A stretch of 64,000 nucleotides of DNA from Betaproteobacteria bacterium (GCA_947486575.1 CANKUB010000006.1:2455-66454); one strand, 5' to 3'; counted from the stretch's first letter, positions 457 to 28,337 are shown. The notes: generated by a model not told the origin, from the letters alone. Numbers and translations are program-made.

Positions 457-473
457 TTTAAACCTGACCGGTT

Positions 474-1463
474 TCATTCGGGTTGAATGCCTGCCTTACG
501 CACCACCTCTGACCATTTGGCAATTTCTTTTTTAACGTACGCGCCGAATGCTTCCGGCGTGCCGACAATGGCATCGGTAGATTGCGCTGCCAGCTTTTCT
601 TTCACATCCGCAGCCTGCATCGCCTGATTGATTTCGCTGTTGAGCTTGTTGACGATGGCGCGCGGCGTGCCTGCGGGCGCGAAGATGCCATACCACGTGG
701 TAACTTCGAGATTCGGCATGCCCGCTTCAATCGCGGTTGGCACGTCCGGCAACGTTGGCGAACGCTGCGGCGCGATAACCGCCAGCCCGCGCAGTCGGCC
801 CGTCTTGATGTGCGGTGCGGGCGCAGGGATGCCGATAAACAGCGCGTGAACCTGACCGCTGATCACATCGTTCATCGCGAGGCTTGATCCCTTATACGCG
901 ATATGCACAAGGTTCACGCCCGCTTGGAGCTTGAACAATTCTGCTGCGAGATGCAACGAAGTACCTACGCCACTCGACGCATAATTCAAGCTACCGGGTT
1001 TGGCTTTTGCCAGCGCGATGAATTCCTTGAGCGTGGCCGCAGGCAGATTACCCGGCGTGACAATCACCATCGGCACCGCAGCCACTCGCGCAATTGGCGC
1101 GAAATCCTTCACGGTATCGTAGCCCAGCTTTTTGTAGAGGCTGGGGCTGATGGTGATATTTGGCGCCACCAGCAGCAGCGTATAGCCGTCGGGCGCTGCG
1201 CGTGCAGCGAGCTCTATACCTAGATTGCCCGCAGCACCGGGGCGATTATCGATAATGACCTGCTGCCCCATAGACTGCGTGAGTTTTTGGCCGATGAGCC
1301 GCGCAATAAACTCAGTAGCGCCGCCCGGTGGAAAACCAACAATGAAGCGTATCGGTTTGGTCGGGTAAGCCTGTGCTGAGTCAGTCAACGCGGGCTGGGC
1401 CGTAACCCAACCGGCGTGACCCAGGCCTGCCACTGCCAGTAACTTTATAATCGTACGCTGCAT
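474..1463 (-). CDS. Bug/TctC-family periplasmic solute-binding protein
   Basis: The ORF 474..1661 is trimmed to the internal ATG at 1461-1463 (MQRTIIKLLAVAGLG..., signal peptide). It carries YPTKPIRFIVGFPPGGATE, VIIDNRPGAAGN, APDGYT and the C-terminal KAGIQPE motif typical of Bug proteins. Confidence 0.9.
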   Translation of the reverse strand: MQRTIIKLLAVAGLGHAGWVTAQPALTDSAQAYPTKPIRFIVGFPPGGATEFIARLIGQKLTQSMGQQVIIDNRPGAAGNLGIELAARAAPDGYTLLLVAPNITISPSLYKKLGYDTVKDFAPIARVAAVPMVIVTPGNLPAATLKEFIALAKAKPGSLNYASSGVGTSLHLAAELFKLQAGVNLVHIAYKGSSLAMNDVISGQVHALFIGIPAPAPHIKTGRLRGLAVIAPQRSPTLPDVPTAIEAGMPNLEVTTWYGIFAPAGTPRAIVNKLNSEINQAMQAADVKEKLAAQSTDAIVGTPEAFGAYVKKEIAKWSEVVRKAGIQPE

Positions 1464-1467
1464 CGTG

Positions 1468-2421
1468 TCACTTTCTGTCGTCGTTTTCCGGAATCGGATA
1501 AGGCACAGGCTTGCCCGCAAAATGCGCCTCCAGATTTGCCAGCACCTTGCGGCCACGCTCAACGCGTATTTCCTGCGTGTGCGTACCAATATGCGGTGCC
1601 AGCACCACGTTTTCCATTTCCAGCAGCGCCGCTGGAACCTGAGGCTCATCCCAGAAAACATCGAGCCCCGCGCCCGCCAGATTATTTTCCTGTAGCGCTG
1701 TAATCAATGCCGCTTCATTCACCACTGGACCGCGTGCCACATTGATCAAATATCCGCCCGGCCCCAGCGCCTGCAACACCTTCGCATCGACAAGATCGCG
1801 CGTTTGCGCTGTCAACGGACAGCACACCACCAGCACATCCACGTCGCGCGCCATTGCCAGCAGATCGCTGTAGTAGGGATGAGATGATTGCTTCCGGTTT
1901 GGCCCGTGGTAACAAACCGTCATGTCGAACGCCTGCACGCGTCTGGCTACGCCCTGCCCTATCGCGCCATAACCAATGATGCCGCAGCGTTTGCCGTGAA
2001 CCTCGTTACCGGCAAGCGTGATCTCTTTTTCCCACCGGCCCGCACGGATAAAACGGTCGCTAACCGCAATGCGCCGCATCACGTCAATCATCAGGCCCAG
2101 CGCAAGATCGGCCACTGATTCGGTAATGGCATCGGGCGTGCGCGTGCAGATAATATGGCGTGCCTTCGCCTCAACCAGATCGAGCGTGTTGCGCGGCGAG
2201 CCAAAGCACGCAATGATTTCAAGTCTGGGCAACACCCTCATCGTCGCCGTATCGCAGCCGCCCAGCCCTGAGGTAACCACACCACGTATGCGAGTTGCGA
2301 CAGTCTTCAAAAATGCGTCGCGATCCGGCTGCATCCAGAGTTTGTGAATCACATACTGCTGCTCCAGCGCTGCCAGCGTTGGCGCAAATATGGGCAGCAG
2401 TACCAGAATTTCCGGTTTCAT
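1468..2421 (-). CDS. D-isomer-specific 2-hydroxyacid dehydrogenase (glyoxylate/hydroxypyruvate reductase-like)
   Basis: It has the NAD-binding motif GIIGYGAIGQGVARR, plus NVARG and LAPHIG motifs. The start is placed at ATG 2419-2421 (MKPEILVL), which is preceded by AGGAG; the track start at 2442 is a GTG. Confidence 0.85.
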   Translation of the reverse strand: MKPEILVLLPIFAPTLAALEQQYVIHKLWMQPDRDAFLKTVATRIRGVVTSGLGGCDTATMRVLPRLEIIACFGSPRNTLDLVEAKARHIICTRTPDAITESVADLALGLMIDVMRRIAVSDRFIRAGRWEKEITLAGNEVHGKRCGIIGYGAIGQGVARRVQAFDMTVCYHGPNRKQSSHPYYSDLLAMARDVDVLVVCCPLTAQTRDLVDAKVLQALGPGGYLINVARGPVVNEAALITALQENNLAGAGLDVFWDEPQVPAALLEMENVVLAPHIGTHTQEIRVERGRKVLANLEAHFAGKPVPYPIPENDDRK

Positions 2422-2438
2422 GGCGTCAATGCTCCTGT

Positions 2439-3422
2439 TCACTCACCCTTGATACCAGCCTCTTTGATGACCTTGCCAAAGCGCGCGGCTTCACTGCGGA
2501 TGAACTGGCCGAATTGCTCGGGCGTGCTGGTCATTGGCTCGACACCAGCGGCGGTAAATCGCTGTTGAGTATCCGGTGCATTCACGGCTTTGATGATCTC
2601 GCTGTTCAATCGCGAGATCATTGCCGCCGGTGTACCGGTGGGCGTGAGCATGCCATACCACACCAGCACTTCGGCATTCTTAAGCCCCTGCTCCGCCGTT
2701 GTTGGCACGTCGGGCATATACGACAGACGTTTCTCGGCCAGCACCGCGAGTGCGCGTACTTTACCGCCTTTGATCTGCCCGAGCGCCGAGGGCGCGGCCA
2801 TGATCAGCATATCAACCTGCCCGCTCACCATGCCTATCAGCGCGAGGCCCGAGCCTTTGTAGGGCACGTGCACGATATCGAGCTTTTCAAGGTTTTTCAG
2901 CAACTCAGGCGCGAGATGCGTGGTGGTGCCGATACCGCCGGAACCGTAGTTCAATTTACCGGGCGCAGCGCGCGCGATGCGCACCAGTTCCTGTAGGTTT
3001 TTGGCAGGCACTGACGGATGAACCAGCAACACGTTCAGCACTGCACCCACCAGCGAGATAGGCGCAAGGTCTTTGTACGGATCGTAATTCAGTCGGGTAT
3101 AAAGGTGAGGGCTGAGCGAAATCACCGGCGAACTCAACACGATGGTGTAACCATCCTGCGGCGCTTTAGCGGCCAGTTCCAGGCCAATGTTGCCGCTGGC
3201 CCCCGGGCGATTATCGGTAGGCACCTGCTGCCCCATTTGCTCGCCCAGTTTTTGCGCCAGCAGACGTCCCACCAGATCAGTGGGCCCGCCGGGCGGAAAC
3301 GGCAGAATCATGCGCACGGGCTTGACCGGGTAATTTTGCGCCAGCACCGCGCCAGCGCCGCACGCGACAGCCAAAGCCGTGCCCAGATGCGAGCCCAGCT
3401 GGATAACCCGCTTTCGAATCAT
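2439..3422 (-). CDS. Bug/TctC-family periplasmic solute-binding protein
   Basis: Motifs YPVKPVRMILPFPPGGPTD, PTDNRPGASGN, PQDGYT and C-terminal EAGIKGE. The start is at ATG 3420-3422 (MIRKRV), preceded by GAGGAG. Confidence 0.9.
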   Translation of the reverse strand: MIRKRVIQLGSHLGTALAVACGAGAVLAQNYPVKPVRMILPFPPGGPTDLVGRLLAQKLGEQMGQQVPTDNRPGASGNIGLELAAKAPQDGYTIVLSSPVISLSPHLYTRLNYDPYKDLAPISLVGAVLNVLLVHPSVPAKNLQELVRIARAAPGKLNYGSGGIGTTTHLAPELLKNLEKLDIVHVPYKGSGLALIGMVSGQVDMLIMAAPSALGQIKGGKVRALAVLAEKRLSYMPDVPTTAEQGLKNAEVLVWYGMLTPTGTPAAMISRLNSEIIKAVNAPDTQQRFTAAGVEPMTSTPEQFGQFIRSEAARFGKVIKEAGIKGE

Positions 3423-3511
3423 TTCAGTCTCCTCAAACAAACGCGCCGGGACATGCCCGGCGCTGATAATGCTATCGCTTCGTCCGCTAATCGCGAATCT
3501 GGGTTGTTACG

Positions 3512-4699
3512 TTACTTTAAACGCTTCAGAATCTTGAGACGTTGCACATTGTCACCAGCAAGGTGCGTCCACACCATTGCGTCGCGCACCAGCTTATCGA
3601 CACGCGAATTCATCATGCAGCCCTCGGCACCGTGTATCTGCATGTTGAGCTGCGTGACGCGCTGGATGATATCGGTCGAGTAATTCATCACAAAACCGGC
3701 ATTGGCGGAATGCTCGCCCGCATCGTGCTGCCACGCCGTGCGCATCACGAAAGAACGCAACGCCTCGGTAAGCATGTGCATTTCGTGAACGCTGAGTGCG
3801 ACGAGCTGATGCTCCATCAGATATTTGCCAGCACGTTTGTGGGTGCGCGCGTAGGCCGTGCCCAATTCAACGGCATCGTCACACACACCCAGCGCATTCG
3901 CCGCCAATTCCAGATCACCGAAGATATCCCCGCCTGTGGTGTCGCCCTTGCCGGCTTTGACTGAACCGGTGCCCACTGCGCCCACGATATTCTCTTTCGG
4001 CAAGCGTGCGTTTTCGAATATCAGTTCGGCATTCTGATAAAAGCGCCAGCCCCGCTTGTTGAACACCTTGCCGATGCGAAAACCCGGTGTGCCCTTGGGC
4101 ACCATGAACAGCGTGCCGCCCTGCTTGATGTTGACATCCGGATTGGTGCGAGTGTCGACGAAAAACAGCGACCCTACGCTGCCATTAGCGATAAAACATT
4201 TTTCGCCATTGAGCACCCATTCGTCGCCGTCCTGCACGGCCTTAACCCGGTAGCCTGCCTTGGGGTCATCTTCCGGCGGCATACGGTTATCTGAGCCTGA
4301 GTTTGGCTCGGTGATACCGCGGCCCATCACATAGCGATGATTGGCGAGAAACGGCTTGAGAAAGCGTTCTTTCTGGTCATCCGTGCACGCCATCGACATC
4401 AAGTGGCTCCACTTCCAGTTCTGACTGAAAGCTTTGGACATGGCGCTGTCGCCCTTGGCCAGTTCCGCCATCACGATCGCCTGGGATACGAAATCTGCTC
4501 CCGGTCCGCCCCACGACTTGGGCACTGCCAGCGTACGAAAGCCGAGTTTGGAGCCTGCCTCGATTATGTCCCAATCCCATGGCGCGAAGCCACCTTCGAT
4601 TTGATCACGTGCCACTGAGGCGGGGCGCAAAACGTCTGCGGCAAATTTACGCGCCTCAGCCTGCCAGTGACGTTGTTCTTCGTTGAGCGAAAAATCCAT
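3512..4699 (-). CDS. Acyl-CoA dehydrogenase family protein with the canonical C-terminal catalytic Glu position substituted
   Basis: The 395-aa product shows ACAD architecture. The C-terminal helix reads RDAMVWTHLAGDNVQRLKI where MCAD-type enzymes read [19 protein letters not shown], so Ala or Leu sits at the Glu position. Confidence 0.85.
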   Translation of the reverse strand: MDFSLNEEQRHWQAEARKFAADVLRPASVARDQIEGGFAPWDWDIIEAGSKLGFRTLAVPKSWGGPGADFVSQAIVMAELAKGDSAMSKAFSQNWKWSHLMSMACTDDQKERFLKPFLANHRYVMGRGITEPNSGSDNRMPPEDDPKAGYRVKAVQDGDEWVLNGEKCFIANGSVGSLFFVDTRTNPDVNIKQGGTLFMVPKGTPGFRIGKVFNKRGWRFYQNAELIFENARLPKENIVGAVGTGSVKAGKGDTTGGDIFGDLELAANALGVCDDAVELGTAYARTHKRAGKYLMEHQLVALSVHEMHMLTEALRSFVMRTAWQHDAGEHSANAGFVMNYSTDIIQRVTQLNMQIHGAEGCMMNSRVDKLVRDAMVWTHLAGDNVQRLKILKRLK

Positions 4700-4723
4700 A
4701 ATCTGTCCTTAGATGTCTTTAAC

Positions 4724-5977
4724 TCAAGCCGCAAGTTTGCGTTGGTAGCCAGCAACGGATTCAGCAATCTGCAGCTTGGCCGCGCCATCGGTATCTTCCG
4801 AATGCGCAAAAATGAAACCGTCGTTCACATATTTTTGCAACGGCATATCGCGCATCACACCCATCGCGCCGAAGCACTCAGCGGCAAGCAAGGTCACTTC
4901 GTGCACCGCTTCCGCAGAGGCCACGCGCGCGATCACGTGTAATGGCAGTTCTGACAAGCTGCGGTCAGCAACGGCTTCGGGATGATCCAAGGCCCACGCC
5001 GCTTTCCATACCATGTTGCGCGAGAGTTCAAGTTTGATGGTGCAATCGGCAATCTTGGTGCCAATGGCCTGATGCTCCATGATATTGCGCCCACCCTGAC
5101 GACGCATTTTGGCGTAATCCACTGCGGCATCGTAGCTGGCGCGACCCACGCCAAGGCTCACCGCCGCCATCGCCACCTGGTTACGCGCCAACAGTTTGCC
5201 GTCGGCAAACGGACATGCCCCTTCTTTACCCAGCAAATTCGCCGCAGAAACTTTGCAATCTTTCAATTCAATGGCTGCTGCTGTGCCGTGATGCCAGCGC
5301 GTCAGGGTGTTGTCCGGGCCACCAAATGCGCTGATGGTGTTTTGCACTTTGAAACCAGCAGTGTCGTGCGGAATCAAAAAGGTTGAAAGACCATTCATGC
5401 CTTTGCTGCCCGCACTGGTACGCACCTGCACGGCAAACAATTTTGCCAGCGGCGCATTCGATACCGCTTCAATGCGGCCATTGATTACCCAATCATTGCC
5501 CTGCTTCACTGCTGTGGGAATAACCAAATCTTCGTCGTAAGCATCGCGATGATAGGTCCAGCCGATTCCCGCTTCCATCGTGGTGCCCGCAAACGCCAGG
5601 TGGTAGTTGTCATCGTCGACAAACGCCTTTACGTGCCTGGCTTTTTGCTCGGCAGTCATCAGCGTATCGAACAGCGTGCGGCCCAGCGCAGCCGTAGTAC
5701 CAAGAATCGTTGCCACATCCACTTCACCGGATGCCAGCTCTTCGAGCACGATGCACGTCGTCAGGTTATCCGCACCGGCGCCACCCGCGTCTTCGGACAA
5801 TGCCAGTGTGCGTATGCCGAGTTGCGTGGCGCTTTTGAGCAGATTCGTCATCACCGGCTTTTCAAAGGGCTGCAGACGGTCTGGATGAATGGCGGCAGCT
5901 TTCATTTCGCGCTGCGCAAAATCGCGTAGGGTATCGCGCATTTCGAGCTGCTCAGGGGTCAGCGTAAGATTGAACAT
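4724..5977 (-). CDS. Acyl-CoA dehydrogenase family protein with the catalytic Glu retained
   Basis: The 417-aa product has a C-terminus NDGFIFAHSEDTDGAAKLQIA that aligns without gaps to [21 protein letters not shown], with Glu conserved. Confidence 0.85.
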   Translation of the reverse strand: MFNLTLTPEQLEMRDTLRDFAQREMKAAAIHPDRLQPFEKPVMTNLLKSATQLGIRTLALSEDAGGAGADNLTTCIVLEELASGEVDVATILGTTAALGRTLFDTLMTAEQKARHVKAFVDDDNYHLAFAGTTMEAGIGWTYHRDAYDEDLVIPTAVKQGNDWVINGRIEAVSNAPLAKLFAVQVRTSAGSKGMNGLSTFLIPHDTAGFKVQNTISAFGGPDNTLTRWHHGTAAAIELKDCKVSAANLLGKEGACPFADGKLLARNQVAMAAVSLGVGRASYDAAVDYAKMRRQGGRNIMEHQAIGTKIADCTIKLELSRNMVWKAAWALDHPEAVADRSLSELPLHVIARVASAEAVHEVTLLAAECFGAMGVMRDMPLQKYVNDGFIFAHSEDTDGAAKLQIAESVAGYQRKLAA

Positions 5978-6086
5978 AAGTATTTGATTCCATTAAAAAC
6001 TTCAGAAATAGGCCAGAACAATATAGCCCTGCCGGATGAAGGCGAGACTATAGCGGGAAGCGCGTTCGTTGAAAAGGCTAGAAAGG

Positions 6087-6551
6087 CTAGTAATGCGACT
6101 TGAAGCTGATCGCGTCGCGGTATTTGATATCTTCGAGATCGATGTACGAGCGCTTGGTCGCCTTGTCCACGGTGAACTGCATCTTGCGATTGGTTTCATT
6201 GCAGGCGCGAATGTCGATCAGTTCCAGCGCCTCTTTCACCTCCCACTCATGCGCGCCCGCGATACCTGCCGGCGCATAAATGATCGAACCGGCTTCGACT
6301 TCAAATTCCTTGCCGTTGATGTCCCGCACCGTCGCGTGACCCGAAATCACATAATACGTCGCTTCAATCGGATGCCAGTGCAATTGTTCATAGGTGCCGG
6401 GCTTGTAACTCGCGCGCCCGAGCCGCACACGGTCAGTCATAAACACTTCGGGCCATCCGATGAGCCGCGTGTAGGTCTGCCCGTCAGTCACGCCACGTGA
6501 CCCTTTGTAGTCTTTTTCGTTAATCACCCGCAGGGTTGATTCCACTTCCAT
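6087..6551 (-). CDS. Cupin-domain protein, probably metal-binding
   Basis: Cupin motif 1 is LHWHPIEATYYVISG (H-x-H-x4-E). Cupin motif 2 is GSIIYAPAGIAGAHEW. Confidence 0.75.
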   Translation of the reverse strand: MEVESTLRVINEKDYKGSRGVTDGQTYTRLIGWPEVFMTDRVRLGRASYKPGTYEQLHWHPIEATYYVISGHATVRDINGKEFEVEAGSIIYAPAGIAGAHEWEVKEALELIDIRACNETNRKMQFTVDKATKRSYIDLEDIKYRDAISFKSHY

Positions 6552-6572
6552 TTTTGGTGCTCCCGATTAAAA

Positions 6573-7361
6573 TTATTCGCCAGTGAATTTGGGCTTGCGC
6601 TTCTCACGCCAGGCTTTGTGCGCTTCGTCTTTGTCCTTCGACATCTCCAGCACCATAAAGCGATAGGCGTCTGTCAGGGACGCATCTTGCAAGTTTGATA
6701 TGTCCATGCCGCGAATGATCGATTCCTTGGTCAGGCTCACCGCCAACGGTGGCAGCGCAGCGATGTGCTCGGCGATCTCCTGCGTTTTGGCTTTGAGTTC
6801 TGCGTGCGGCACGTACCATTGCGCCACGCCCAGCCGGTACGCTTCTTCCCCTTTCAATGGAAATCCCATCGCCAGCCGCATGCCCATACCTTTGCCCGCG
6901 TAGCGCGCCAACCGCGTGCCGCCGCCGTAATTCGGAATAATCCCCAGCGCCACCTGCGGCAAGCGCCACTCGGATTTATCGGAAGCCACAATCAAATCAC
7001 AGGCCAGACTGATGATTGCTCCGACACCAATCGCGTAACCATTCACTGACGCAATCACCGGCTTGGGGAAATCGCCCAGCAGATTCGCCGGGAACATGCG
7101 TGGCCGACGTAACTTTTTGACAAACTGCTTTGCGCCGCCGGTCACATGCGCATTGGCTTTTTTCAGATTAGCACCAGCCGAAAACGCACCACCGGATTCG
7201 TCGCCCGTTAGTATGACCACGCGCACATCGTCATCGTCCGTGGCCTTGTTCAGTTCAGCAACCAGACCCTCGTTGTAATCCTCATCCCAGGCATTGCGCA
7301 CTGCCGGACGGCTGAGCGTCAGCGTGAGGATGTGTCCCTTCTTTTCCGCCAAGAGCGGCAT
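6573..7361 (-). CDS. Enoyl-CoA hydratase/isomerase (crotonase) family protein
   Basis: The 262-aa product shows a crotonase-like pattern: LTLSRPAVRNAWD, VVILTGDESGGAFSAGANL and PVIASVNGYAIGVG. Confidence 0.85.
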   Translation of the reverse strand: MPLLAEKKGHILTLTLSRPAVRNAWDEDYNEGLVAELNKATDDDDVRVVILTGDESGGAFSAGANLKKANAHVTGGAKQFVKKLRRPRMFPANLLGDFPKPVIASVNGYAIGVGAIISLACDLIVASDKSEWRLPQVALGIIPNYGGGTRLARYAGKGMGMRLAMGFPLKGEEAYRLGVAQWYVPHAELKAKTQEIAEHIAALPPLAVSLTKESIIRGMDISNLQDASLTDAYRFMVLEMSKDKDEAHKAWREKRKPKFTGE

Positions 7362-7397
7362 ACGCTATCTCCTTGTTTTTAAATATCTTTTCGTGAG

Positions 7398-8834
7398 CTA
7401 TGCAGCCACTAGCGCAGGCGCCGGGTGTCCAGCCACTGCCAACATTGCCAGCGTGGTGGCGAATGCCTGCGCGTCGGTCAGTTGTTCCAGTTCAAGCACG
7501 GCATCGCAAATCGATTGAGCCCGTGCGGCGGTCAAAACGCCAATCGTATTCTGCATGAACTTCTCGATAATCGCATCAGCACTCGCTGGCTCATCGGGCA
7601 GAATATTGTCACGATGCCGCAGTTCGCGCCCGTCTTTCATCTTGACGATTACTTCGCCGGAGCGTGATTTTGGAAAACCCGGGTTCGGGTCTATCTCATA
7701 GCTGACCTTATTCGCCAGCTTCAGCAAATCCGCATCGGTATACGAAGGCGCCTCAATTTCATTCAGCCCAAATTTGCCACGCACCAGCGCGCACGCCACC
7801 GAGTACGGCAGGCTGAACTGCGCCGAATAGCTGCTCGCCGGTTTGAGTTTGGATGCGAGCGGTTCGCAAACCAGCGGCACTGCGGCATCCGCTATCAGCG
7901 TGCGTACCGATTCAACATTGTCCGCGCTAAACGGTTGCGATTGTTCCTTTGACAGTTTGATCGCGCAGTTCATGAACGCATGCAGTTGGTGGCAAGCCGG
8001 AAACAGCTTGATCGACGTGCGTGTGAATTCCCAGGTTTCGCCCAAACCTTCGACCACGGACTTCGGTTGCGCGCTGGCCTTATGCTCTCCAAGAAAGCAG
8101 GTGTAGAGGCCGAAGTGACCTTCATACGCTTGCGCCGGGCCGACGTAGCCTGCCCGCGCAAACGCGGCTGCGGTAATCCCCGAAGCGCCCGCCCAGCCCG
8201 GATGCAGCCGTTTGGTCCACGAGCCCTCCTGCAATGGCTGCAATGTCCCTGAGGTAACGGAAAGCGCCACACCCTGCGCCAGCGCGTGTTGCTCGGCATT
8301 AAGTTTCATCAGTCGGCCTGCGGCTACCGTGCTGCCGAAAACACCAGCGATACCGGTGGCGTGAAATCCCGCGTTGACAAAGCCCCCCTTGGCCGCAGCC
8401 GCAATTCGCGCAGAGATTTCCAGCCCGAGCAGCGTCGCCATCAACATGTCTTTGCCATTGGCTTTGGCGTGCACACCCATACCCAGCACAACCGGTATGC
8501 AACTCGCCGACAGATGCACCGAGCCCGGCAAGTAAGTGTCGTCGTAATCTAGACCGTGCACGAGTATACCGTTCATCACCACGGCGTCGCGCAGTGCGAG
8601 CCTCGCTTGATTGCCGATCACTACGCTATCGCCGGTGCCCAGACTGCTCAACGCCGACAGTGCAATGGGCGCAAACGGATAGCGAGAAGCGGCAAACGCC
8701 GTGCCGATGGCATCCAGCATCACCAACTTGGCACGTTCACGAACGGTCGGTGGAATATCGTCATAGCTGCGCGAGGCGACAAACTGCGCCACCTGCTGCG
8801 ATAGCGTTGGGGATAAAATTTGGGTATTGCTCAT
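7398..8834 (-). CDS. MmgE/PrpD family protein
   Basis: The 478-aa product has the N-terminus LSQQVAQFVASRSYDDIPPTVRERAKLVMLDAIG, typical of MmgE/PrpD. It is a paralog of five other ORFs in the window. Confidence 0.85.
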   Translation of the reverse strand: MSNTQILSPTLSQQVAQFVASRSYDDIPPTVRERAKLVMLDAIGTAFAASRYPFAPIALSALSSLGTGDSVVIGNQARLALRDAVVMNGILVHGLDYDDTYLPGSVHLSASCIPVVLGMGVHAKANGKDMLMATLLGLEISARIAAAAKGGFVNAGFHATGIAGVFGSTVAAGRLMKLNAEQHALAQGVALSVTSGTLQPLQEGSWTKRLHPGWAGASGITAAAFARAGYVGPAQAYEGHFGLYTCFLGEHKASAQPKSVVEGLGETWEFTRTSIKLFPACHQLHAFMNCAIKLSKEQSQPFSADNVESVRTLIADAAVPLVCEPLASKLKPASSYSAQFSLPYSVACALVRGKFGLNEIEAPSYTDADLLKLANKVSYEIDPNPGFPKSRSGEVIVKMKDGRELRHRDNILPDEPASADAIIEKFMQNTIGVLTAARAQSICDAVLELEQLTDAQAFATTLAMLAVAGHPAPALVAA

Positions 8835-8860
8835 GGTTGGTTGCTCTCGAATAGCTGTCG

Positions 8861-9853
8861 TTAATCCGCTTTCATGCCCACTGCCTGTATCACCCGCCTG
8901 TTCTGCTCCAGCTCGCGGTTGATCATTTTTGCGAATTCCTGCGGCGTATTTCCCACGGCGTCGGTGCCAGATGCGGCAAATTTGTCGCGGGTTTCAGGCT
9001 GCCGCAATACCGCTTTGATTTGCGTATGCAGATAATCCACGATCGGGGCGGGTAAATTGGCTGGCCCCAGAACGCCCTGCCATGGCGCTGTTTCAAAATC
9101 CTTTACACCCGCTTCCGCCAGCGTCGGCACATCAGGTAGATACGACACCCGCTGCTGACCTGACGTGCCCAGTATTTTCACACGACCTGTTTTAATGAAC
9201 GCCATCACCGTTGGCGGTGTAGTAAATATGAGTTGCACTTCACCGCCGAGCAGTGCGGTTAAAGCGGGCGCACCTCCTTTGAACGGTACCGAAACCATTT
9301 TGGTATTGGTGAGCATCTTGAACAGCTCCGCCGCCAGCGCCCCGGAACTACTGGGCGTTGCGAGCGCTACATTCAGCACGCCCGGTTTCGCTTTGGCCAG
9401 CGCAATGAGTTCCTGCGTGGTGTTGGCAGGCACATTGGCATTTATAGCGAGCAACAACGGCTGCTGGCCGGCCAGTGTGATCGGCGTGAAATCCTTGTAG
9501 ACATCGTACGGTACCTTGCGATAAATAAACGGCACAATGGTGTGAGCCGCGTAAGTGAACAACAGCGTATAGCCATCCGCCCGCGCGTTCGCAACGATTT
9601 CATTGCCCAGCACGCCGCCAGCGCCGGGGCGGTTATCGACCACGAAAGACTGGCCAACGGCTTCACTCAACTTGCTGACGGTGAGGCGCGCGATGATATC
9701 GGTGCCGCCGCCAGCGGCAACGGGCACGATCACTCGCACCGGGCGTTCGGGGTAACGTGCTGTGCCCTTGACTACGGATTGCGCGTGTGCGCCATCGACC
9801 GCCAACACGGCGGAACAGAAAAATATATTTAAAAACAATGCGTTACGATTCAT
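8861..9853 (-). CDS. Bug/TctC-family periplasmic solute-binding protein
   Basis: A signal peptide followed by YPERPVRVIVPVAAGGGTD, VVDNRPGAGG and ADGYT. Confidence 0.9.
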   Translation of the reverse strand: MNRNALFLNIFFCSAVLAVDGAHAQSVVKGTARYPERPVRVIVPVAAGGGTDIIARLTVSKLSEAVGQSFVVDNRPGAGGVLGNEIVANARADGYTLLFTYAAHTIVPFIYRKVPYDVYKDFTPITLAGQQPLLLAINANVPANTTQELIALAKAKPGVLNVALATPSSSGALAAELFKMLTNTKMVSVPFKGGAPALTALLGGEVQLIFTTPPTVMAFIKTGRVKILGTSGQQRVSYLPDVPTLAEAGVKDFETAPWQGVLGPANLPAPIVDYLHTQIKAVLRQPETRDKFAASGTDAVGNTPQEFAKMINRELEQNRRVIQAVGMKAD

Positions 9854-9860
9854 ATCGCGA

Positions 9861-12011
9861 CTAGGGCCGACGCACGATCAAGGCGTCCAGCACCCGCGCA
9901 CCCGCGCCAGCTTCATAAACCATCATGGGGTTGATATCGAGCTCCGAAATTTCATGCCGGAAATCATGTGCGAACCAGGACAAACGCACGATGGCATCCA
10001 CCACGGCATTGCGATCCCGCGCTGACATGCCGCGCACGCCGGCCAGCAATTTCACGCCGCGCAGTTCGTCCAGCATTTCATTGGCTTGCCGGAGTGTGAC
10101 CGGCGCTGCGCGATACGAAATATCTTTCAGCACCTCGACGTGTATGCCGCCCAGACCCGCCGCAATGATGGGGCCGAACACCGGATCCATGATCACGCCC
10201 AGCATCATTTCCACGCCTGGCCGTGCCATCTCCTGCACCAGCACGCCATTGATTTTCGCTTGAGGCGCGTACGCCCTTGCAGACTCGATGATGCTGTCGA
10301 ACGCTTCGCTTACCGCATCCTTACCCGAAACGCCAAGGCGAATGCCGCCTGCCTCTGTCTTGTGTGCAATGTCCGGCGAGTCAATTTTAAGTGCAACCGG
10401 GCCGCCCATTTTGGCTGCAATAGCCGCAGCCTCTATTGCCGTTGCCGCCAGTGCCTCTTGCGTTACGGGCAAGCCGTAGCAAGCTAACAGTTGCTTGGCT
10501 TCGCGCTCGGTGACTTTCGGCCCCAAGGCCTTGAGCTGGCCTTCGGCCTTGGCGTAGTCAACGCCGGACGGACGCTCCGGTGTCAAAGCGCCTGATTTTC
10601 GCGCCAATACATATTGCCCAAAATCGTAGGCCGCCCGAATGGCGCGGGTGCATGGCGTGGCGTCGCGGTAGACCACTACGCCTTTATCAATGAGATCACG
10701 CGCTTTGTAGTCCTTGTCATCCATGCAGCCACCGACCCACAACATGGCCGTCTGTTTGCCGCATTGAGCCATGATCTCTACCGTCTGATCCATATTCTTT
10801 CGCGTAGGGAATGGCACGATGGGAATCATCACATCCACGCCGGGATCAGCGGCTATCGTTGTCAGTGCCTTGCGGTAAAAATCCTGATCGCCGGTGGCAG
10901 CCGAGGTGAGATCGGTCGGATTGCCCACTTTGCCGTAACCCGGCATCAGCTTTGCCAGCGCTTCCTGTGTCTCAGTGGCAAATGCGTTCCATTGCAAATC
11001 AAAAATAGCGCCGGCATCGGCCAGATTCACGATATTGCCGCCGGTGGGCGCTACGGCCGCCAAACCGCGCCCTTTGGGCCATTTACGATGGCGCAAAAAC
11101 ACCGCTGTTTCGTAAAGCTCGTTGCACTCGTGCACCTGTATTAATCCATACTGACGGCACACCGCTTTGATGATGTCGTTGTCGCCCGCAATAGTGCCGG
11201 TATGCGACGCGGCCGCACGACTGCCAGCATCAGTCGAACCGATTTTCAGGATGACCAGTGGTTTTTCCAGTTCGGCGGCCTCTTCCGCAAGACACCGGAA
11301 TTTTTCGCCATTCTTGATACCTTCGATGGCGAGCAACACCACATTGGTGGTTTCGGAATGCAGCATGAAGCGCGCAAAATCCAGCGTATCAATGTCGGCC
11401 TCGTTGCCGCAACTGGCTTCGTAACTGATGCCGAGACCATGCTCCATGGTGCGCCACATCACGTTGATCTGCCCTAATCCGCCGCTGTGACTCACCACGC
11501 CGATATCGCCCGCCTTCGCATAGGTCTCGCGAATCGCCGCCGTGGATGTCATGGCGAAGCGGTCGATGAAATTCACGATGCCATTGCAGTTGGGGCCCAT
11601 GAAACGGATACCCTTGGCATTGCCAAATTCGATCAGGCGTTTTTGGCGTGCACGGCCTTCGTCCGTACCTGACTCGGCAAAGCCGCCGCTGAAGACGGTA
11701 GCAAAACGCACGCCGATGGCCGCGCAATCTTCCAGCACATCGAACACGCGCTCGCTCGACACCACCAGCCCGACGTGATCCGGCGTCTCGGGCAAATCCT
11801 TGACGCCCGGGTAACACTTGAAACCGTAAATTTCCTTCAACCGCGGGTTGACCGGATAAATATTCCCTGCGAAACCAAAACGCGTCATCTGCTGAAACAC
11901 GCGCCCGCCGAAATTTGTGGGATGGTCAGTGGCCCCCACCAGCGCGATGCTGCGGGGCGCCATCATTGGCGAGATATCGGGTAAATCGTTTACTGGTAAA
12001 GGTGCATTCAT
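9861..12011 (-). CDS. Acyl-CoA synthetase (NDP-forming), with fused CoA-binding/ligase and ATP-grasp domains
   Basis: The 716-aa product has an N-terminal CoA-binding region (IALVGATDHPTNFGGRV), the phosphohistidine loop AAASHTGTIAG, and a C-terminal ATP-grasp-like region. Confidence 0.85.
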   Translation of the reverse strand: MNAPLPVNDLPDISPMMAPRSIALVGATDHPTNFGGRVFQQMTRFGFAGNIYPVNPRLKEIYGFKCYPGVKDLPETPDHVGLVVSSERVFDVLEDCAAIGVRFATVFSGGFAESGTDEGRARQKRLIEFGNAKGIRFMGPNCNGIVNFIDRFAMTSTAAIRETYAKAGDIGVVSHSGGLGQINVMWRTMEHGLGISYEASCGNEADIDTLDFARFMLHSETTNVVLLAIEGIKNGEKFRCLAEEAAELEKPLVILKIGSTDAGSRAAASHTGTIAGDNDIIKAVCRQYGLIQVHECNELYETAVFLRHRKWPKGRGLAAVAPTGGNIVNLADAGAIFDLQWNAFATETQEALAKLMPGYGKVGNPTDLTSAATGDQDFYRKALTTIAADPGVDVMIPIVPFPTRKNMDQTVEIMAQCGKQTAMLWVGGCMDDKDYKARDLIDKGVVVYRDATPCTRAIRAAYDFGQYVLARKSGALTPERPSGVDYAKAEGQLKALGPKVTEREAKQLLACYGLPVTQEALAATAIEAAAIAAKMGGPVALKIDSPDIAHKTEAGGIRLGVSGKDAVSEAFDSIIESARAYAPQAKINGVLVQEMARPGVEMMLGVIMDPVFGPIIAAGLGGIHVEVLKDISYRAAPVTLRQANEMLDELRGVKLLAGVRGMSARDRNAVVDAIVRLSWFAHDFRHEISELDINPMMVYEAGAGARVLDALIVRRP

Positions 12012-12017
12012 TGCATT

Positions 12018-12458
12018 TTATTTCCGTAAATGATCAGCAAACCCGCTGGCTGATCCCACCAAAGTTTTAACGCCTTGCTGATTTTCACACCAGCATTCCA
12101 CGGTGACGCGCGGCCTGCCGCCTACATCGTCGTGGCTGGTCACCACGGCGCGGGCCGTCAACGTTTCACCCACGATCACCGGCTTGATGAACGACGCCGA
12201 TACTTTGCCGCCTCTGACGAAACCTTCGCCGAGCCAGCTCGTCATCATTTGCGACACGTAGGCAGTAGACATCAATGCCTGCACCAGCGGTGCGGGAAAG
12301 CCCTTTTTCTTTGCCCATTCGACATCGGTATGGATTGAGTTGGGGCGCACGCCGGAATAGCAATCGATCTGACGCTGGCTGATGGTTTTTTTCAAGGGCG
12401 GCAGTTCCGTGCCAACTGCCAACAACTGCGGCTGACTAGCGGTTTTTGGCATGTTCAT
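12018..12458 (-). CDS. MaoC-like (hotdog fold) dehydratase subunit
   Basis: The 146-aa product has a hydratase-2-like segment YSGVRPNSIHTDVEWAKKKGF. An alternative ATG lies at 12450-12452. It overlaps the upstream hotdog gene by 17-23 bp. Confidence 0.75.
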   Translation of the reverse strand: MNMPKTASQPQLLAVGTELPPLKKTISQRQIDCYSGVRPNSIHTDVEWAKKKGFPAPLVQALMSTAYVSQMMTSWLGEGFVRGGKVSASFIKPVIVGETLTARAVVTSHDDVGGRPRVTVECWCENQQGVKTLVGSASGFADHLRK

Positions 12459-12912
12459 GCACTCCCGATTTCGGGAACAGCATTTGCGTGAATTGGCCGC
12501 GAACCAGAACCGTCCCGGTTTCTTCGTCGCGCGTTGCGAATTCGGTAACCATGTAATGACGTCCGCGCTTTTCGTATTTGTCGATCAGTTTTCCACGCGT
12601 GCGTACGCGCATACCGACGCGTAGTGGTTCCACAAACTCGTACTGCATTTTCGCGTGCAAACCGGCGGGCACGATGTATTTGCTGTGGCGCATGAACAGC
12701 GCCTGATTGCCCATTAAAACCGGATGGGTGATCTTTCCGCCGAAAGGCGAACTTGCGGGCGCGTCATCGCTGCCTTCGAAATACCAAGGGTCGTGATCCT
12801 CCACCGCGAAGGCAAACGTCTCCACGTCTTCAGGCTTGATCAGAAAATCATCGGACATGAACTCCTCGCCCACCGTCACCACTTCATAATTTATTTCTTT
12901 AAATTCAATCAC
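12436..12912 (-). CDS. MaoC N-terminal-like (hotdog fold) dehydratase subunit
   Basis: The 158-aa product contains GGKITHPVLMGNQALF and a hotdog-type C-terminal beta region. It is translationally overlapped with 12018..12458. Confidence 0.7.
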   Translation of the reverse strand: MIEFKEINYEVVTVGEEFMSDDFLIKPEDVETFAFAVEDHDPWYFEGSDDAPASSPFGGKITHPVLMGNQALFMRHSKYIVPAGLHAKMQYEFVEPLRVGMRVRTRGKLIDKYEKRGRHYMVTEFATRDEETGTVLVRGQFTQMLFPKSGVHEHAKNR

Positions 12913-12927
12913 TTATATTTTCCTTAT

Positions 12928-14292
12928 CTATGCTGCCAACTGTTTGATCACAGTAGTTACGTCACTCACACCTTCCAGCTTCAACAACGTTTCGAGCAGG
13001 CTCGTGCGTTGCGCATCGTTCAAGCGCGCCGCAGTCAGCTCATGAAATTTCGCCAGCACGTCGGCATCGCTCAATTGATTTTTGGCATGACCGCGTGGAT
13101 AGATCACCTCCTTGCTGAGCGTCTGCCCCGCTTTAGTACGTATGGTGACGCGGGCAGGCGCACCTTCTGGATACAGACTATCCAGACGGTCGTCGCTGCG
13201 CATTTCTATTTTGGCCATCAATGCAGCCACTGCGGGGTCAACCAATCGCGCATCGGAAAAAGAAGCATCGGTTACCGATCCGTCCAGCAGTGCCATCGCC
13301 ACCACATACGGCATGCTGTGATCCGCAGTCTCCCGCGTGGAAGGCGCCCAGCGATTGGCGTCGGTGCCCATCATCATATGTGCAGCCTTATAGCCATCCA
13401 CCACAATTTCCGCGATGTCTTCGACTTTCACTTGCGGCCGCAAATCCAGTGCGGCGAATACTGCCGATTGTCCGTGATAACAAATCGGCAAACACTTCAA
13501 ATGGGTTTGCGTAATCAAATGTTCGTTGTAGGGCAAAGGCCAATCGTGACGGCCAATCACCTCCCACAGCCCGCCATTTCCTTCAAACACCGCTGTCGGC
13601 CCGGTGAAACCGTCCTGCGCCAGCTGCGCCGCGAACACGGCATTGCGTGAGGCGTTGGCGCCTGCGCAGCCCTTCCAATTCGACAAGGCGCCACGACGGG
13701 CCTGCGCCAGCGACATATTGGGCGCCAGCGCCATCGCCACCGCATTCGCCATCTGGTCACGCGAGAGTTTCAGCAACTTGCCTGCGCCCAGCACACAGCC
13801 GAGCACGCCATATACCGGCTGATCCCACCCCTTGGCATTGATATCGATGGCATTGCAGAAACTGCAATACACATCGTAAGCCAGCGTAATCGCGTTGATA
13901 ACTGCTTTGCCATCGGCGTGAACGCTTTCGGCAACCGCAAGAATGCCCGAAATCATGTCACTCGGATGGCCGCGGCTCTTGCCTAGATAGGTATCGCTGA
14001 TATCGAGCAAGCGCGTCATTACGCCATTGGCGAATGCTGCGGCTTCCGGCGTGGTTTGAATGTTGCTGCCCCACACCGTGGCCGGATTATCGGTACGGCT
14101 GCGCAGGGCCACCTTGCGCGCGAGCGCACTGGTCGGATTGTCGTATGCACCCAGCGCGCTTGAAAACGCATCAATTACACGCAGCTTGCAGGCATGCACC
14201 ACATCGGGTGACAGCGATTCAAACGACGACTTCTGCGCAAAGCTCACCAGCGCTTCGGTTGTGACATCCCATCCTGCAACAGCTTGATCCAC
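12928..14292 (-). CDS. MmgE/PrpD family protein
   Basis: It shows a PrpD-like N-terminus and DHSMPY-type motifs (ADHSMPYVVAMAL). The start is moved to GTG 14290-14292, which is preceded by GAGGAG. The longer track ORF would overlap the upstream gene. Confidence 0.85.
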   Translation of the reverse strand: MDQAVAGWDVTTEALVSFAQKSSFESLSPDVVHACKLRVIDAFSSALGAYDNPTSALARKVALRSRTDNPATVWGSNIQTTPEAAAFANGVMTRLLDISDTYLGKSRGHPSDMISGILAVAESVHADGKAVINAITLAYDVYCSFCNAIDINAKGWDQPVYGVLGCVLGAGKLLKLSRDQMANAVAMALAPNMSLAQARRGALSNWKGCAGANASRNAVFAAQLAQDGFTGPTAVFEGNGGLWEVIGRHDWPLPYNEHLITQTHLKCLPICYHGQSAVFAALDLRPQVKVEDIAEIVVDGYKAAHMMMGTDANRWAPSTRETADHSMPYVVAMALLDGSVTDASFSDARLVDPAVAALMAKIEMRSDDRLDSLYPEGAPARVTIRTKAGQTLSKEVIYPRGHAKNQLSDADVLAKFHELTAARLNDAQRTSLLETLLKLEGVSDVTTVIKQLAA

Positions 14293-14306
14293 GGTAGTTC
14301 TCCTCT

Positions 14307-15296
14307 TCACTCTGGCTTTATACCTGCGACTTTGATCACACGTGCCCACTTTGCCAACTCGCTCTTGACGAGATTCGCCAGTTCGGCCTGTGTCCCCGTA
14401 TCCCCATCGAGACCTTGCGCATCCATGACAGATCTCGCTTCAGCGTTCGCGATATTTTTACGCGTGAGTTCGTTTAAACGGCTGACGATCGGTTGTGCCG
14501 TGCCCGCTGGCGCAAACAACGCGTTCCATGCGGTTACTTCATAACCGGCAATGCCGGACTCATCCACTGTTGGCACATCCGGCAATACCGACGAGCGCTT
14601 CGCCCCAGTAACGCCCAGCGCAATCAGCTTGCCTTGCTTGACATGTGGCACCACCGTCGTGCTGCCGAAAGTCAGCGCAATTTGCCCGCCCAGCAAATCC
14701 GGCATCACCTGTCCGGTGCCTTTGTAGGGAATATGTGCCAGCTTCACACCAGCCATGTGGCCAAACAATTCACCCGCAAGATGCGTACCGCTGCCTACAC
14801 CCACCGACGCAAAGTTGATTTGACCGGGTCGCACTTTCGCCAATGCAATCAATGACTTGACGTTGCGTGCTGGCAGCGATGGATGCGCCACCACAAAGAA
14901 CATGTACGACGATAGTTTTGAAATCGGTTCGAAATCCTTGACCGGATCGTAGCCCACTTTGCGCTGCAAGCTCGGATTAACCGTGATGCTGCTTTGAACA
15001 ATCAGCAACGTATATCCATCCGCCGGCGATTTGGCCACCAGTTCAACGCCAATCGAACCACCCGCACCCGGCCGGTTTTCAACGATGAATTGTTGCCCCA
15101 GATCGCCCGTCAGCGATTTGGCGAGCAATCGTGCCACCAGATCAAGTGAACCGCCCGGACTGAAGGGATTGATGATTCGCACGGGTTTAACCGGGTACGT
15201 CTGGGCGTTCACATGAATGCAGCTCAGTACGAGCGCTGCCGCCACACCACCTTGGACGCACCGGTGAAAAAATAATCGCAGCCTGCAATTTGCCAT
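14307..15296 (-). CDS. Bug/TctC-family periplasmic solute-binding protein
   Basis: Motifs YPVKPVRIINPFSPGGS, IVENRPGAGGS, ADGYT and C-terminal VAGIKPE. Confidence 0.9.
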   Translation of the reverse strand: MANCRLRLFFHRCVQGGVAAALVLSCIHVNAQTYPVKPVRIINPFSPGGSLDLVARLLAKSLTGDLGQQFIVENRPGAGGSIGVELVAKSPADGYTLLIVQSSITVNPSLQRKVGYDPVKDFEPISKLSSYMFFVVAHPSLPARNVKSLIALAKVRPGQINFASVGVGSGTHLAGELFGHMAGVKLAHIPYKGTGQVMPDLLGGQIALTFGSTTVVPHVKQGKLIALGVTGAKRSSVLPDVPTVDESGIAGYEVTAWNALFAPAGTAQPIVSRLNELTRKNIANAEARSVMDAQGLDGDTGTQAELANLVKSELAKWARVIKVAGIKPE

Positions 15297-15388
15297 ACGT
15301 AATCCACACCCGTTCCGAACGATCTACGCATTACATCATGCGCGGCAAGACTATGCCACAATGTGCATCGCAATATGAACTGCGCGCC

Positions 15389-16342: not shown

Positions 16343-16354
16343 TCAGCAGGATGC

Positions 16355-16978: not shown

Positions 16979-16982
16979 GCTG

Positions 16983-17954: not shown

Positions 17955-18244
17955 CTGCATACCCTCCCCGGACGCCACACTCTAGCACGCGACTCGCATC
18001 CTCGATTCCTGCGCGGTTACTTCGTGACGAGGCGACCGCGCAAAGCAGCAATAATCCGCGTCACAGATGAGCGTCAAGCATAAGAGTCGAGGAAAAGGGT
18101 CTTTACAAGACTATCGTTTAGTGATTGTATAATCATTCAACAAAAACAATTACTTACGTTTTGCTTACTAGCGCGTGTAGCCGCTTTCTGGCGACACGCT
18201 GATAGTCCAGCGGCACCGTCAATGTTCAAACTCTGGAGACCCCT

Positions 18245-24597: not shown

Positions 24598-24795
24598 CGA
24601 CGATCAGGTATAAGCATGCAATGCGTTTTATCAGGTTTCGCGTTCCGCCATTCATGGACGATCAAAATGATGAAAACCATAGTATCTAAAAACCGGGTGA
24701 CACTGGACTTTTTGCGGCGCCACTAGCGGTGCAAATCAGGGTTTTTGCGCTGCCGTAACGAACAGCGAATAACGAAATTAGCTGAAAGGGCGAAC

Positions 24796-27910: not shown

Positions 27911-27915
27911 TACGA

Positions 27916-28320: not shown

Positions 28321-28337
28321 ATCAAGAGGATTTCACG

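Follow-up and report, generated by a model that had tools for sequence, protein, structure and literature searches.

Several described systems bear on the genes considered here. In steroid side-chain degradation, acyl-CoA dehydrogenases (ACADs) and MaoC-like hydratases occur as heteromers (ChsE1-E2, ChsE4-E5 and ChsH1-H2), and the pimeloyl-CoA dehydrogenase PimCD is likewise a two-subunit enzyme. Bordetella and Cupriavidus carry many orphan TctC-family receptor (Bug) genes that lie beside catabolic enzymes and have no adjoining TctA or TctB. A third system is the itaconate cluster ich-mcd-mmgE-ict-ccl of Pseudomonas aeruginosa and Cupriavidus necator, which also degrades methylsuccinate (Gonner et al. 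2025, PMC12290011). Its PrpD-family protein is an (S)-(R)-methylsuccinate isomerase acting on the free acid, its ACAD is a methylsuccinyl-CoA dehydrogenase, and the isomerase gene always adjoins mcd; a MaoC-type hydratase, an ACAD and a PrpD-family protein form the hallmark set of such clusters, and the characterised substrates of PrpD-family enzymes are all free acids with a common succinate substructure (PMC12290011). Here we describe an array of fifteen genes at the start of a 64,000-nucleotide stretch of DNA from a Betaproteobacteria bacterium (GCA_947486575.1 CANKUB010000006.1:2455-66454), the whole of which is referred to as the window. On a slight balance of probability, gene content and gene order point to a composite CoA-dependent catabolic cluster of uncultured Burkholderiales for one acid, or a few related acids, with a succinate (C4-dicarboxylate) substructure.

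The genes of the array are as follows, given from its head downwards, with identities to relatives where these help to place a receptor:

14307-15296, minus strand: Bug1, TctC family (Pfam), receptor gene that heads the array and goes with the PrpD1 module (79-86% identity in relatives, 66% in locus L106)
12928-14292, minus strand: PrpD1, MmgE/PrpD family (Pfam N and C domains)
12436-12912, minus strand: MaoC-N, FAS1_DH_region hot-dog subunit, partner of MaoC-C (Pfam)
12018-12452, minus strand: MaoC-C, MaoC_dehydratase hot-dog subunit of a split (R)-hydratase-type pair (Pfam, 1.9e-15), with a 17-nt overlap with MaoC-N
9861-12011, minus strand: ACS, fused alpha-beta NDP-forming acyl-CoA synthetase of 716 aa (Pfam CoA_binding_2, Succ_CoA_lig, ATP-grasp_5)
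8861-9853, minus strand: Bug2, TctC family (Pfam), going with the PrpD1-MaoC-synthetase module (83-90% in relatives)
7398-8834, minus strand: PrpD2, MmgE/PrpD family (Pfam N and C domains), kin to the PrpD gene of itaconate/methylsuccinate-type clusters
6573-7361, minus strand: crotonase-family enoyl-CoA hydratase/isomerase (Pfam ECH_1, 6.6e-45)
6087-6551, minus strand: small metal-binding monocupin of 154 aa, the most conserved gene of the block (Pfam Cupin_2; His-x-His...Glu and His motifs)
4724-5977, minus strand: ACADa, ACAD-family subunit (Pfam)
3512-4699, minus strand: ACADb, ACAD-family subunit (Pfam)
2439-3422, minus strand: Bug3, TctC family (Pfam TctC, 6e-75), receptor going with the cupin and HADH
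1468-2442, minus strand: HADH, D-isomer-specific 2-hydroxyacid dehydrogenase (Pfam 2-Hacid_dh_C, 2e-55), last gene of the block
474-1463, minus strand: Bug4, TctC family (Pfam TctC, 2.8e-77), outside the conserved block
1-456, minus strand: Bug5, TctC-family periplasmic receptor cut by the window start, translation opening MTHRNYLLLLIF...NYPNKPVRMIVPVPPGG, outside the conserved block

Six-frame open reading frames (ORFs) and their translations agree with an earlier note on this DNA, which had described fifteen minus-strand genes running without a break from position 15296 to the window start. Pfam returns each of the families named there (five TctC/Bug, two MmgE/PrpD, a FAS1_DH_region and MaoC_dehydratase pair, an NDP-forming acyl-CoA synthetase, ECH_1, Cupin_2, two ACADs and 2-Hacid_dh), four of the five Bug genes being recognised by Pfam TctC and the truncated Bug5 by its Bug N-terminal motif. 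The spacing that it gave, 4-36 bp or overlaps apart from gaps of 89 and 109 bp, is also borne out by gene calls on an identical metagenome contig, where the gaps from Bug1 downward are 14, 15, -17, 6, 7, 26, 36, 21, 109, 24, 89, 17, -53 and 17 nt (should Bug4 begin at the ATG of its signal peptide, at 1463, the -53 turns into +4). The two large gaps lie between the cupin and ACADa (109 nt) and between ACADb and Bug3 (89 nt), and from Bug1 to the cupin (10 genes) every gap is 36 nt or less. The head of the array borders a divergent intergenic region adjoining a plus-strand gene for a Tat-signal alpha/beta hydrolase. The exact array proteins are found solely on ENA and Logan metagenome contigs, the organism being an uncultured betaproteobacterium of soil and groundwater.

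Direction and family content are of limited weight in this window. The array is its longest same-strand run, and since a plus-strand run of about eleven genes is also present, co-direction alone is weak evidence. The gene tables contain about 19 TctC/Bug genes and at least six MmgE/PrpD-family genes, so that five Bug and two PrpD genes in the array are not specific by themselves. At least four PrpD-family genes lie outside the array (49149-50495, 51562-52932, 56993-58357 and 58466-59881, all aligned), and the window paralogs are 23-26% identical to PrpD2. No window gene table has a Pfam match to TctA or TctB, only to the receptors. Repeats in the region reflect only the similarity among Bug paralogs, and Rfam identifies no RNA family over positions 1-18300.

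Relatives of the array were collected by a synthetase scan with one genome per species, which gave five metagenome-assembled genomes (MAGs) at 85-89% identity, through homologs of PrpD1, the cupin and MaoC-N, and, for 80 further loci, by a metagenome scan with an alignment of the cupin; the window proteins were mapped onto all loci (numbered with the prefix L) using tblastn. The comparison has four main features. First, the order PrpD1-MaoCN-MaoCC-ACS-(Bug)-PrpD2-ECH-cupin-ACADa-ACADb-(Bug)-HADH, in which ECH is the crotonase, is held in L005, L006, L012, L024, L105 and L107, and also in L008, but with a Bug gene and a metallophosphoesterase-like gene in place of PrpD2; at least seven non-identical genomes of uncultured Burkholderiales keep the ten enzyme genes together and in this order, while flanks and Bug genes change. 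Second, identities among these relatives are 63-81% for PrpD1, 77-89% for ACS, 62-76% for HADH and 92-97% for the cupin. Third, what lies upstream differs: the window, L005 and L006 have an alpha/beta hydrolase, L008 has a Bug and PrpD pair, and L012, L105 and L107 have a molybdopterin oxidoreductase. Fourth, Bug1 is absent from L006 and Bug3 from L005, L008, L012 and L024; in L024 the ten enzyme genes follow one another without any intervening Bug gene (Bug2 too is absent), and L105 and L107 have two Bug genes after ACS. Orthologs of Bug4 and Bug5 are present in L008 only (90% and 89% identity), and a different Bug, of 43-45% identity, occupies the Bug4 position in other loci. Because the Bug genes come and go, the conserved unit is the ten enzyme genes from PrpD1 to HADH and not all fifteen. 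Conservation of gene order, which had been put forward as a check, is thus found across diverged genomes, and the treatment of the fifteen genes as one unit is not supported: Bug4 and Bug5 accompany the block in a single relative, Bug1, Bug2 and Bug3 are each missing somewhere, and the block itself is a fusion of separate modules.

That the block is a fusion of two modules which also occur separately is shown by the arrangement of more distant loci. As read from these neighbourhoods, module A consists of Bug1, Bug2, PrpD1, MaoC-N/MaoC-C and ACS, and module B of PrpD2, the crotonase, the cupin, ACADa/ACADb and HADH. Module A stands alone in a Burkholderiales MAG (GCA_035626595.1, locus L106), where a Bug gene is followed by PrpD1 (62%), a different crotonase, MaoCN (76%), MaoCC (69%), ACS (65%) and a carboxyltransferase; an ortholog of Bug2 (68%) adjoins PrpD1 in this locus, and tblastn of the window proteins finds no PrpD2, cupin, ACAD or HADH there. 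MaoC-N has 519 homologs (the top 120 at 72% identity or more), and in the loci examined it is always followed by MaoC-C and then ACS. The synthetase has the three domain types of its superfamily (CoA-binding, Succ_CoA_lig flavodoxin and ATP-grasp) in one chain and falls under every NCBIfam equivalog cut-off (446 bits against 1300). The best cultured homolog of PrpD1 (42%) is on Celeribacter indicus pP73A, near an NDP-forming synthetase and an ACAD. For module B, L019 and L091 both have a paralogous ACS (34%) that is followed directly by orthologs of ACADa (61%), ACADb (79%), the cupin (81%) and HADH (58%), an independent case of a ligase, the ACAD pair, the cupin and HADH travelling together. 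The plasmid collection yields no cupin homolog and an ACADb match of at best 33% identity, so the cluster is not on any sequenced plasmid of a cultured strain.

A side observation concerns the gene that follows the synthetase in L106 (13265-14812). It is of the Carboxyl_trans type (acyl-CoA carboxyltransferase/decarboxylase) and hints that the CoA ester produced by module A bears an extra carboxyl group.

Within module B, the cupin-(Bug3)-HADH core is, to judge from its neighbourhoods, widespread and mobile. The cupin has 609 homologs (the top 120 at 77% identity or more), all named sources of which are MAGs, and the metagenome loci carry it at 79-97% identity. An HADH ortholog (49-72%) is present downstream of the cupin on the same strand in 37 of the 54 metagenome loci with enough downstream sequence; the two genes are directly adjacent in 21 of these 37 loci and are otherwise separated by an Amidohydro_2 gene (seven loci), a Bug3 ortholog (four), both of these (three) or the ACAD pair (two). 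Bug3 orthologs of 71-78% identity stand between cupin and HADH in L021, L055, L066, L070, L076, L085, L089, L090, L093 and L100. The upstream context of the cupin varies, one type being a divergent aldo-keto reductase. A class-I-fumarase-like alpha/beta pair, a fumarate-reductase-like flavoprotein and an Ldh_2 dehydrogenase directly precede it in L057, L059, L066, L080, L097, L099 and L019 (in L019 at 410-5013), a set that looks like the free-acid counterpart (desaturate, hydrate, oxidise) of the ligase/ACAD/hydratase route. Elsewhere the upstream genes are the ACS paralog with ACADa/b orthologs (L019, L091), ACAD genes with no visible ACS (L086, L087, L094) or other crotonases (L025, L027, L031, L050). 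Downstream, L071 has two family III CoA transferases and a crotonase, and in L021, L052, L073 and L075 a MOFRL-type glycerate kinase gene is convergent to HADH. An intrinsic tie of the cupin-HADH pair to CoA chemistry was tested and is not supported: CoA enzymes lie near the cupin in only 6 of the 35 loci of at least 6 kb, and the pair is thus a free-standing module fed by several upstream chemistries. (A naive ORF census of the cupin neighbourhoods was too noisy in this high-GC DNA and was not used.)

Three non-coding elements are conserved along with the genes:

15311-15383, minus strand: putative head promoter/operator, comprising the 15-mer GCAGTTCATATTGCG (15369-15383), N9, GTGGCA, 18 nt and TGATGTAAT (extended -10-like), ending about 15 nt before the Bug1 ATG
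6047-6075, minus strand: internal promoter-like site from a consensus scan, TTTTCA, 17 nt, TATAGT, in the 109-nt gap between the cupin and ACADa
3443-3463, minus strand: GC-rich hairpin with a perfect 8-bp stem and a 5-nt loop, then GUUUGUUUG, directly after ACADb (dG -18.2 kcal/mol, z = -2.4)

Because promoter-like and terminator-like scan hits are overall no commoner than in shuffled sequence, these sites are meaningful only through their conservation. The window contains a single copy of the 15-mer, which lies 73-87 nt ahead of the Bug1 ATG, and the exact sequence is found once, at the same relative position, in L001-L006, L008, L009, L012, L105 and L107, that is, in every locus with a cluster head at a PrpD1 identity of 64% or more, although the upstream genes differ; it is not found in L024 or L106. 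In the alignment of these heads there are three invariant blocks in otherwise variable DNA, namely the 15-mer, GTGG(C/T)(A/C) 9 nt downstream, and TG(A/G)TGTAAT about 18 nt further. The last of these reads as an extended -10 promoter, which would centre the operator near -53. A sigma-54 promoter at the head was rejected, the GG-GC spacing being 9 nt and not 10 and the element not being conserved in L012 and L105. At the internal site, CTTT[TGC]CA ... GCTATAGTC is kept amid variable DNA in all eight cluster loci, including the distant L024. The hairpin is unique in the window, and its stem is kept in L005, L006, L008 (with a different loop) and L023, whether the next gene is Bug3 or HADH; it is a candidate terminator, attenuator or mRNA-stability element. 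With conserved internal promoter-like and terminator-like elements, the array does not look like one simple operon. A regulated head promoter would drive Bug1 through the cupin, an additional promoter would drive the ACAD pair, and an attenuating or stabilising hairpin would precede the Bug3-HADH-Bug4-Bug5 tail.

Two minor features lie upstream of the head promoter. At 15405-15426 there is a 22-nt near-perfect palindrome, GAGTACTGCACGTGCAATACTC, which belongs either to the divergent intergenic region or to the 5' end of the gene for the Tat-signal hydrolase; it has no match, allowing up to six substitutions, in the head regions of L005, L006, L008, L012, L105 and L107. The Tat-signal alpha/beta hydrolase, a GST and a further receptor gene, Bug0 (15389-17978), flank the cluster head and are co-conserved at 75-87% in L005, L006 and L107, other genes separating this group from the cluster in L107.

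The modular arrangement raises the alternative that there is no common pathway, and that independent receptor-enzyme modules, each for a different acid, stand side by side in a genomic island rich in Bug and PrpD genes, their direction and spacing reflecting island organisation and shared ancestry. We regard this as rather unlikely. The numbers of Bug and PrpD genes in the window are in keeping with it, as are module A alone in L106, the cupin-HADH pair alone in most of the 80 loci, PrpD1 homologs of 61-65% identity whose neighbours are solely Bug or other PrpD genes, the solitary ACS of L007, and the conserved internal promoter-like site and hairpin. It fits poorly with the contiguity and fixed order of ten enzymes in at least seven non-identical genomes whose flanks and Bug genes change, with an invariant operator present in one copy only, at the head, and with the close packing of the genes from Bug1 to the cupin; the independent joining of an ACS to ACADa/b-cupin-HADH in L019 and L091 also speaks against it.

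Several considerations do weigh against a composite cluster acting on succinate-like acids. First, every function is assigned from family membership and context. Second, the block has no lyase, thiolase or thioesterase, which leaves C-C cleavage or thioester release without a recognisable gene. Third, the window is saturated with Bug and PrpD paralogs. Fourth, the relatives with the full block may all represent one family-level lineage, so that the synteny could in part be inheritance and not selection. Fifth, parts of the array may be expressed separately, to judge by the internal promoter-like site and the hairpin. Sixth, with CoA enzymes near so few of the cupins, the role of cupin-HADH in a CoA pathway is uncertain. 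Finally, an ACS ortholog (87%) is alone in an unrelated context in L007. That locus (2721-9352) has the ACS gene between a tannase/feruloyl esterase gene and genes for a SIR2-TIR protein and a STAND NTPase-WD40 protein, with the look of defence genes, and could represent a rearrangement or a chimeric MAG contig.

The two PrpD proteins give the closest link to a described pathway. Both are clear members of the MmgE/PrpD family, scoring 230 and 157 bits (PrpD1) and 195 and 97 bits (PrpD2) with Pfam MmgE_PrpD_N and MmgE_PrpD_C against a cut-off of 32.1, and they belong to different subfamilies, with only 25% identity to each other. By PDB sequence searches each is about equally distant from 2-methylcitrate dehydratase, iminodisuccinate (IDS) epimerase and cis-aconitate decarboxylase (CAD), and neither reaches the NCBIfam equivalog for the 2-methylcitrate dehydratase PrpD (159 and 59 bits, respectively, against cut-offs of 458-950). 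In alignments, PrpD2 keeps the equivalents of human CAD (hCAD) D93, T97, H103, H159, K207, K272 and H277 and all equivalents of the succinate-binding residues H85, D88, H99, H150, K198 and K266 of IDS epimerase, with Leu at hCAD Y318 and Val at IDS-epimerase Y145, the proposed second catalytic base. PrpD1 has no His equivalent to hCAD H159/IDS-epimerase H150; like one other window paralog, it shows G-(W/Y)-D there instead (G-W-D in PrpD1). Where hCAD has H277, PrpD1 carries Gln. At 46% identity, the best cultured homologs of PrpD2 are encoded on Azospirillum brasilense Sp7 plasmid p3 and on Pseudosulfitobacter pSMR1-4, in each case within an itaconate-type cluster that also has MaoC, ACAD, CoA transferase, CoA-ester lyase and GntR genes. 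On account of these homologs, we take the logic to be a shared one, in which PrpD-type conversion of a free acid is followed by formation of a CoA ester, desaturation and hydration. The window cluster and the itaconate/methylsuccinate cluster have in common a PrpD-type enzyme on the free acid, CoA activation, an ACAD and a MaoC-type hydratase, and a TctC-type receptor gene adjoins the C. necator cluster, as TctC receptors also accompany that of the window.

It is nonetheless very improbable that the array encodes the known itaconate/methylsuccinate pathway in another gene order, with the ligase replacing the CoA transferase and the lyase located elsewhere. The resemblance of PrpD2 and the hallmark set of MaoC-type hydratase, ACAD and PrpD (PMC12290011) would favour such an assignment. 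The block, however, has no CoA_transf_3 match and has an NDP-forming ligase where the itaconate cluster has a family III CoA transferase (Ict); neither such a transferase nor an (S)-citramalyl-CoA lyase of the HpcH_HpaI/CitE type is found in the block or in the gene tables to about 61.5 kb of the window. ACADa and ACADb are only 24-29% identical to the ACADs of the itaconate-type loci L102 and L103, and the MaoC subunits have no tblastn match there at 1e-5. PrpD2 carries Val at the proposed second catalytic base, and the crotonase and cupin genes lie between it and the ACADs, whereas the isomerase gene always lies beside mcd (PMC12290011). Five enzymes (PrpD1, the crotonase, the cupin, the second ACAD and HADH) would be left unexplained. 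Relative to the itaconate cluster, the block also differs in its split hydratase and its two ACAD subunits, and its additional genes are those for a PrpD of a second subfamily, the crotonase, the metal cupin and a dehydrogenase of the glyoxylate/hydroxypyruvate reductase (GHPR) type. Judged by these differences in gene content, the window cluster is not a member of the itaconate/methylsuccinate group; the block is probably an uncharacterised variant of that type of pathway, built of smaller reusable modules. No block enzyme scores above any NCBIfam equivalog cut-off and no described pathway with this combination of genes was found in the full-text literature, in line with the earlier note, whose idea of CoA-dependent processing of a substituted or dicarboxylic acid is likewise supported, along with the gene content on which it drew. 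Its description of the pathway as an orphan holds in that no paper reports the combination, and goes too far in that the logic parallels that of the itaconate/methylsuccinate cluster (PMC12290011).

The ACAD pair and the split hydratase invite comparison with a second group of systems. ACADa and ACADb are 24% identical to each other and adjacent in every locus in which either gene is complete. ACADb keeps the TEPxxGSD flavin motif and has Ala at the position of Glu376 in MCAD (alignment to MCAD and 4u83); ACADa has Glu at the canonical catalytic position (HSEDT against IYEGT, alignment to rat SCAD) and a degenerate flavin-loop motif. ACADb is 89-94% identical to its counterparts in the cluster relatives and 69-81% identical to those of the other cupin loci that carry an ACAD pair. 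As the two are always adjacent, ACADa is probably the heteromer partner of ACADb, and the complementary loss of motifs would fit a two-subunit enzyme. In these respects the genes resemble those of ChsE, ChsH and PimCD, with adjacent, anciently diverged paralogs, one ACAD partner lacking the catalytic Glu and the other having a degenerate flavin loop, and separate hot-dog subunits. On these grounds, together with weak NCBIfam matches to pimC/pimD and IpdE2, one might propose beta-oxidation of a bulky or long substrate, for instance the side chain of a steroid or bile acid, or a dicarboxylate of the pimelate type. Such a role is extremely improbable: those matches reach 33-71 bits against cut-offs of 450-650, the block has no thiolase, aldolase or 3-hydroxyacyl-CoA dehydrogenase, and the fused MaoC pair gives only weak matches to PDB sequences, with nothing significant against solved ChsH-type structures. 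PDB sequence searches with both ACADs return only family-level relatives, the similarity to ChsE, ChsH and PimCD being generic, and the PrpD-family enzymes and TctC receptors point to small, polar di- or tricarboxylates.

The remaining enzymes are less readily placed. The crotonase matches no NCBIfam equivalog, reaching at most 172 bits where the cut-off is 400. PDB sequence searches with PrpD1, PrpD2, the cupin and HADH find family-level relatives only. The structural matches of the cupin are generic (TM1459, KdgF, RemF and DddK), and a search with its AlphaFold model (mediocre, pLDDT 67) and Foldseek recovered only generic monocupins, from which no function was assigned. The cupin mercaptosuccinate dioxygenase of Advenella was considered and dropped, as its gene context differs (rhodanese, cystathionine lyase). 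HADH falls in the group of glyoxylate/hydroxypyruvate/hydroxyphenylpyruvate reductases, its best PDB matches being the hydroxyphenylpyruvate reductase 3ba1 and the GHPRs of S. meliloti, and it matches GHPR structures (PDB 3ba1, 5j23) over its full length at 205-258 bits. Unlike the GHPRs, it falls under every NCBIfam equivalog cut-off and is persistently paired with a small metal cupin, a pairing not found in the literature. A more specific proposal for these genes is that the block encodes an undescribed CoA-dependent route for a substituted-succinate or tricarboxylate acid abundant in soil or groundwater, in which the cupin substitutes for a CoA-ester lyase by catalysing the missing step (C-C cleavage or decarboxylation) and the GHPR-type dehydrogenase then takes the 2-oxo acid that is released. 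We consider this a long shot. If true, the cupin-(Bug3)-HADH core would be a new and widespread two-enzyme funnel module.

A composite cluster for acids with a succinate substructure would work along the following lines, by analogy with the itaconate/methylsuccinate cluster (PMC12290011), the individual steps being less certain than the general statement. Bug1 and Bug2 would catch one or two related acids for a TctAB transporter encoded elsewhere. PrpD1 probably dehydrates or decarboxylates a free-acid precursor to give an unsaturated acid, since in L106 its module does without an ACAD; PrpD2 probably isomerises a saturated 2-substituted succinate, again as the free acid. The NDP-forming synthetase would make the CoA esters, replacing a CoA transferase, and the two-subunit ACADa/b would desaturate the saturated CoA ester. 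Hydration of the resulting enoyl-CoA or enoyl-CoAs would fall to the split MaoC hydratase and the crotonase, which may differ in stereochemistry. The 2-oxo or 2-hydroxy acid so formed would pass to the metal cupin and the GHPR-type reductase, which could also take it when imported via Bug3.

The cluster does not represent a new principle of metabolism; of most interest in it are the cupin-HADH module and the clean pairing of receptors with enzymes. The substrates of most PrpD-family proteins and TctC receptors are not known. Relative to the orphan receptors of Bordetella and Cupriavidus, the Bug genes of the window differ in their extreme density, about 19 in 64 kb, and in that orthologs of Bug1, Bug2 and Bug3 travel with specific modules. 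The three pairings, those of Bug1 and Bug2 with PrpD1-MaoC-ACS and that of Bug3 with cupin-HADH, lend themselves directly to ligand and activity screens. The cupin keeps 77-97% identity over hundreds of sequences that come from uncultured Burkholderiales in soil and groundwater metagenomes, and it has no function assigned. Once identified, the substrate could prove to be a branched or substituted dicarboxylate that is common in the environment and has gone unrecognised, much as the itaconate clusters proved also to serve methylsuccinate.

The remainder of the window also contains two Amdase-like genes, FAD_binding_2 flavoproteins, CoA transferases and a thiolase-DUF35-thiolase set. At 47694-49121 a minus-strand ORF of 475 aa overlaps a called plus-strand gene of 225 aa that has no Pfam match. 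On the minus strand at 41445-45278 there is another uncharacterised carboxylate module, composed of a FAD_binding_2 flavoprotein, an Amdase-like gene, a Bug gene and a second Amdase-like gene, the Amdase-like genes belonging to the arylmalonate decarboxylase/Asp-Glu racemase family. The plus strand at 24745-30516 carries a family I CoA transferase, a 129-aa Bug fragment, a thiolase-like gene, a DUF35 gene (zf-ChsH2/OB), a second thiolase-like gene and a Bug gene; this set resembles thiolase systems of the BbsAB/SCP-x type and could provide the thiolytic step that the block lacks.

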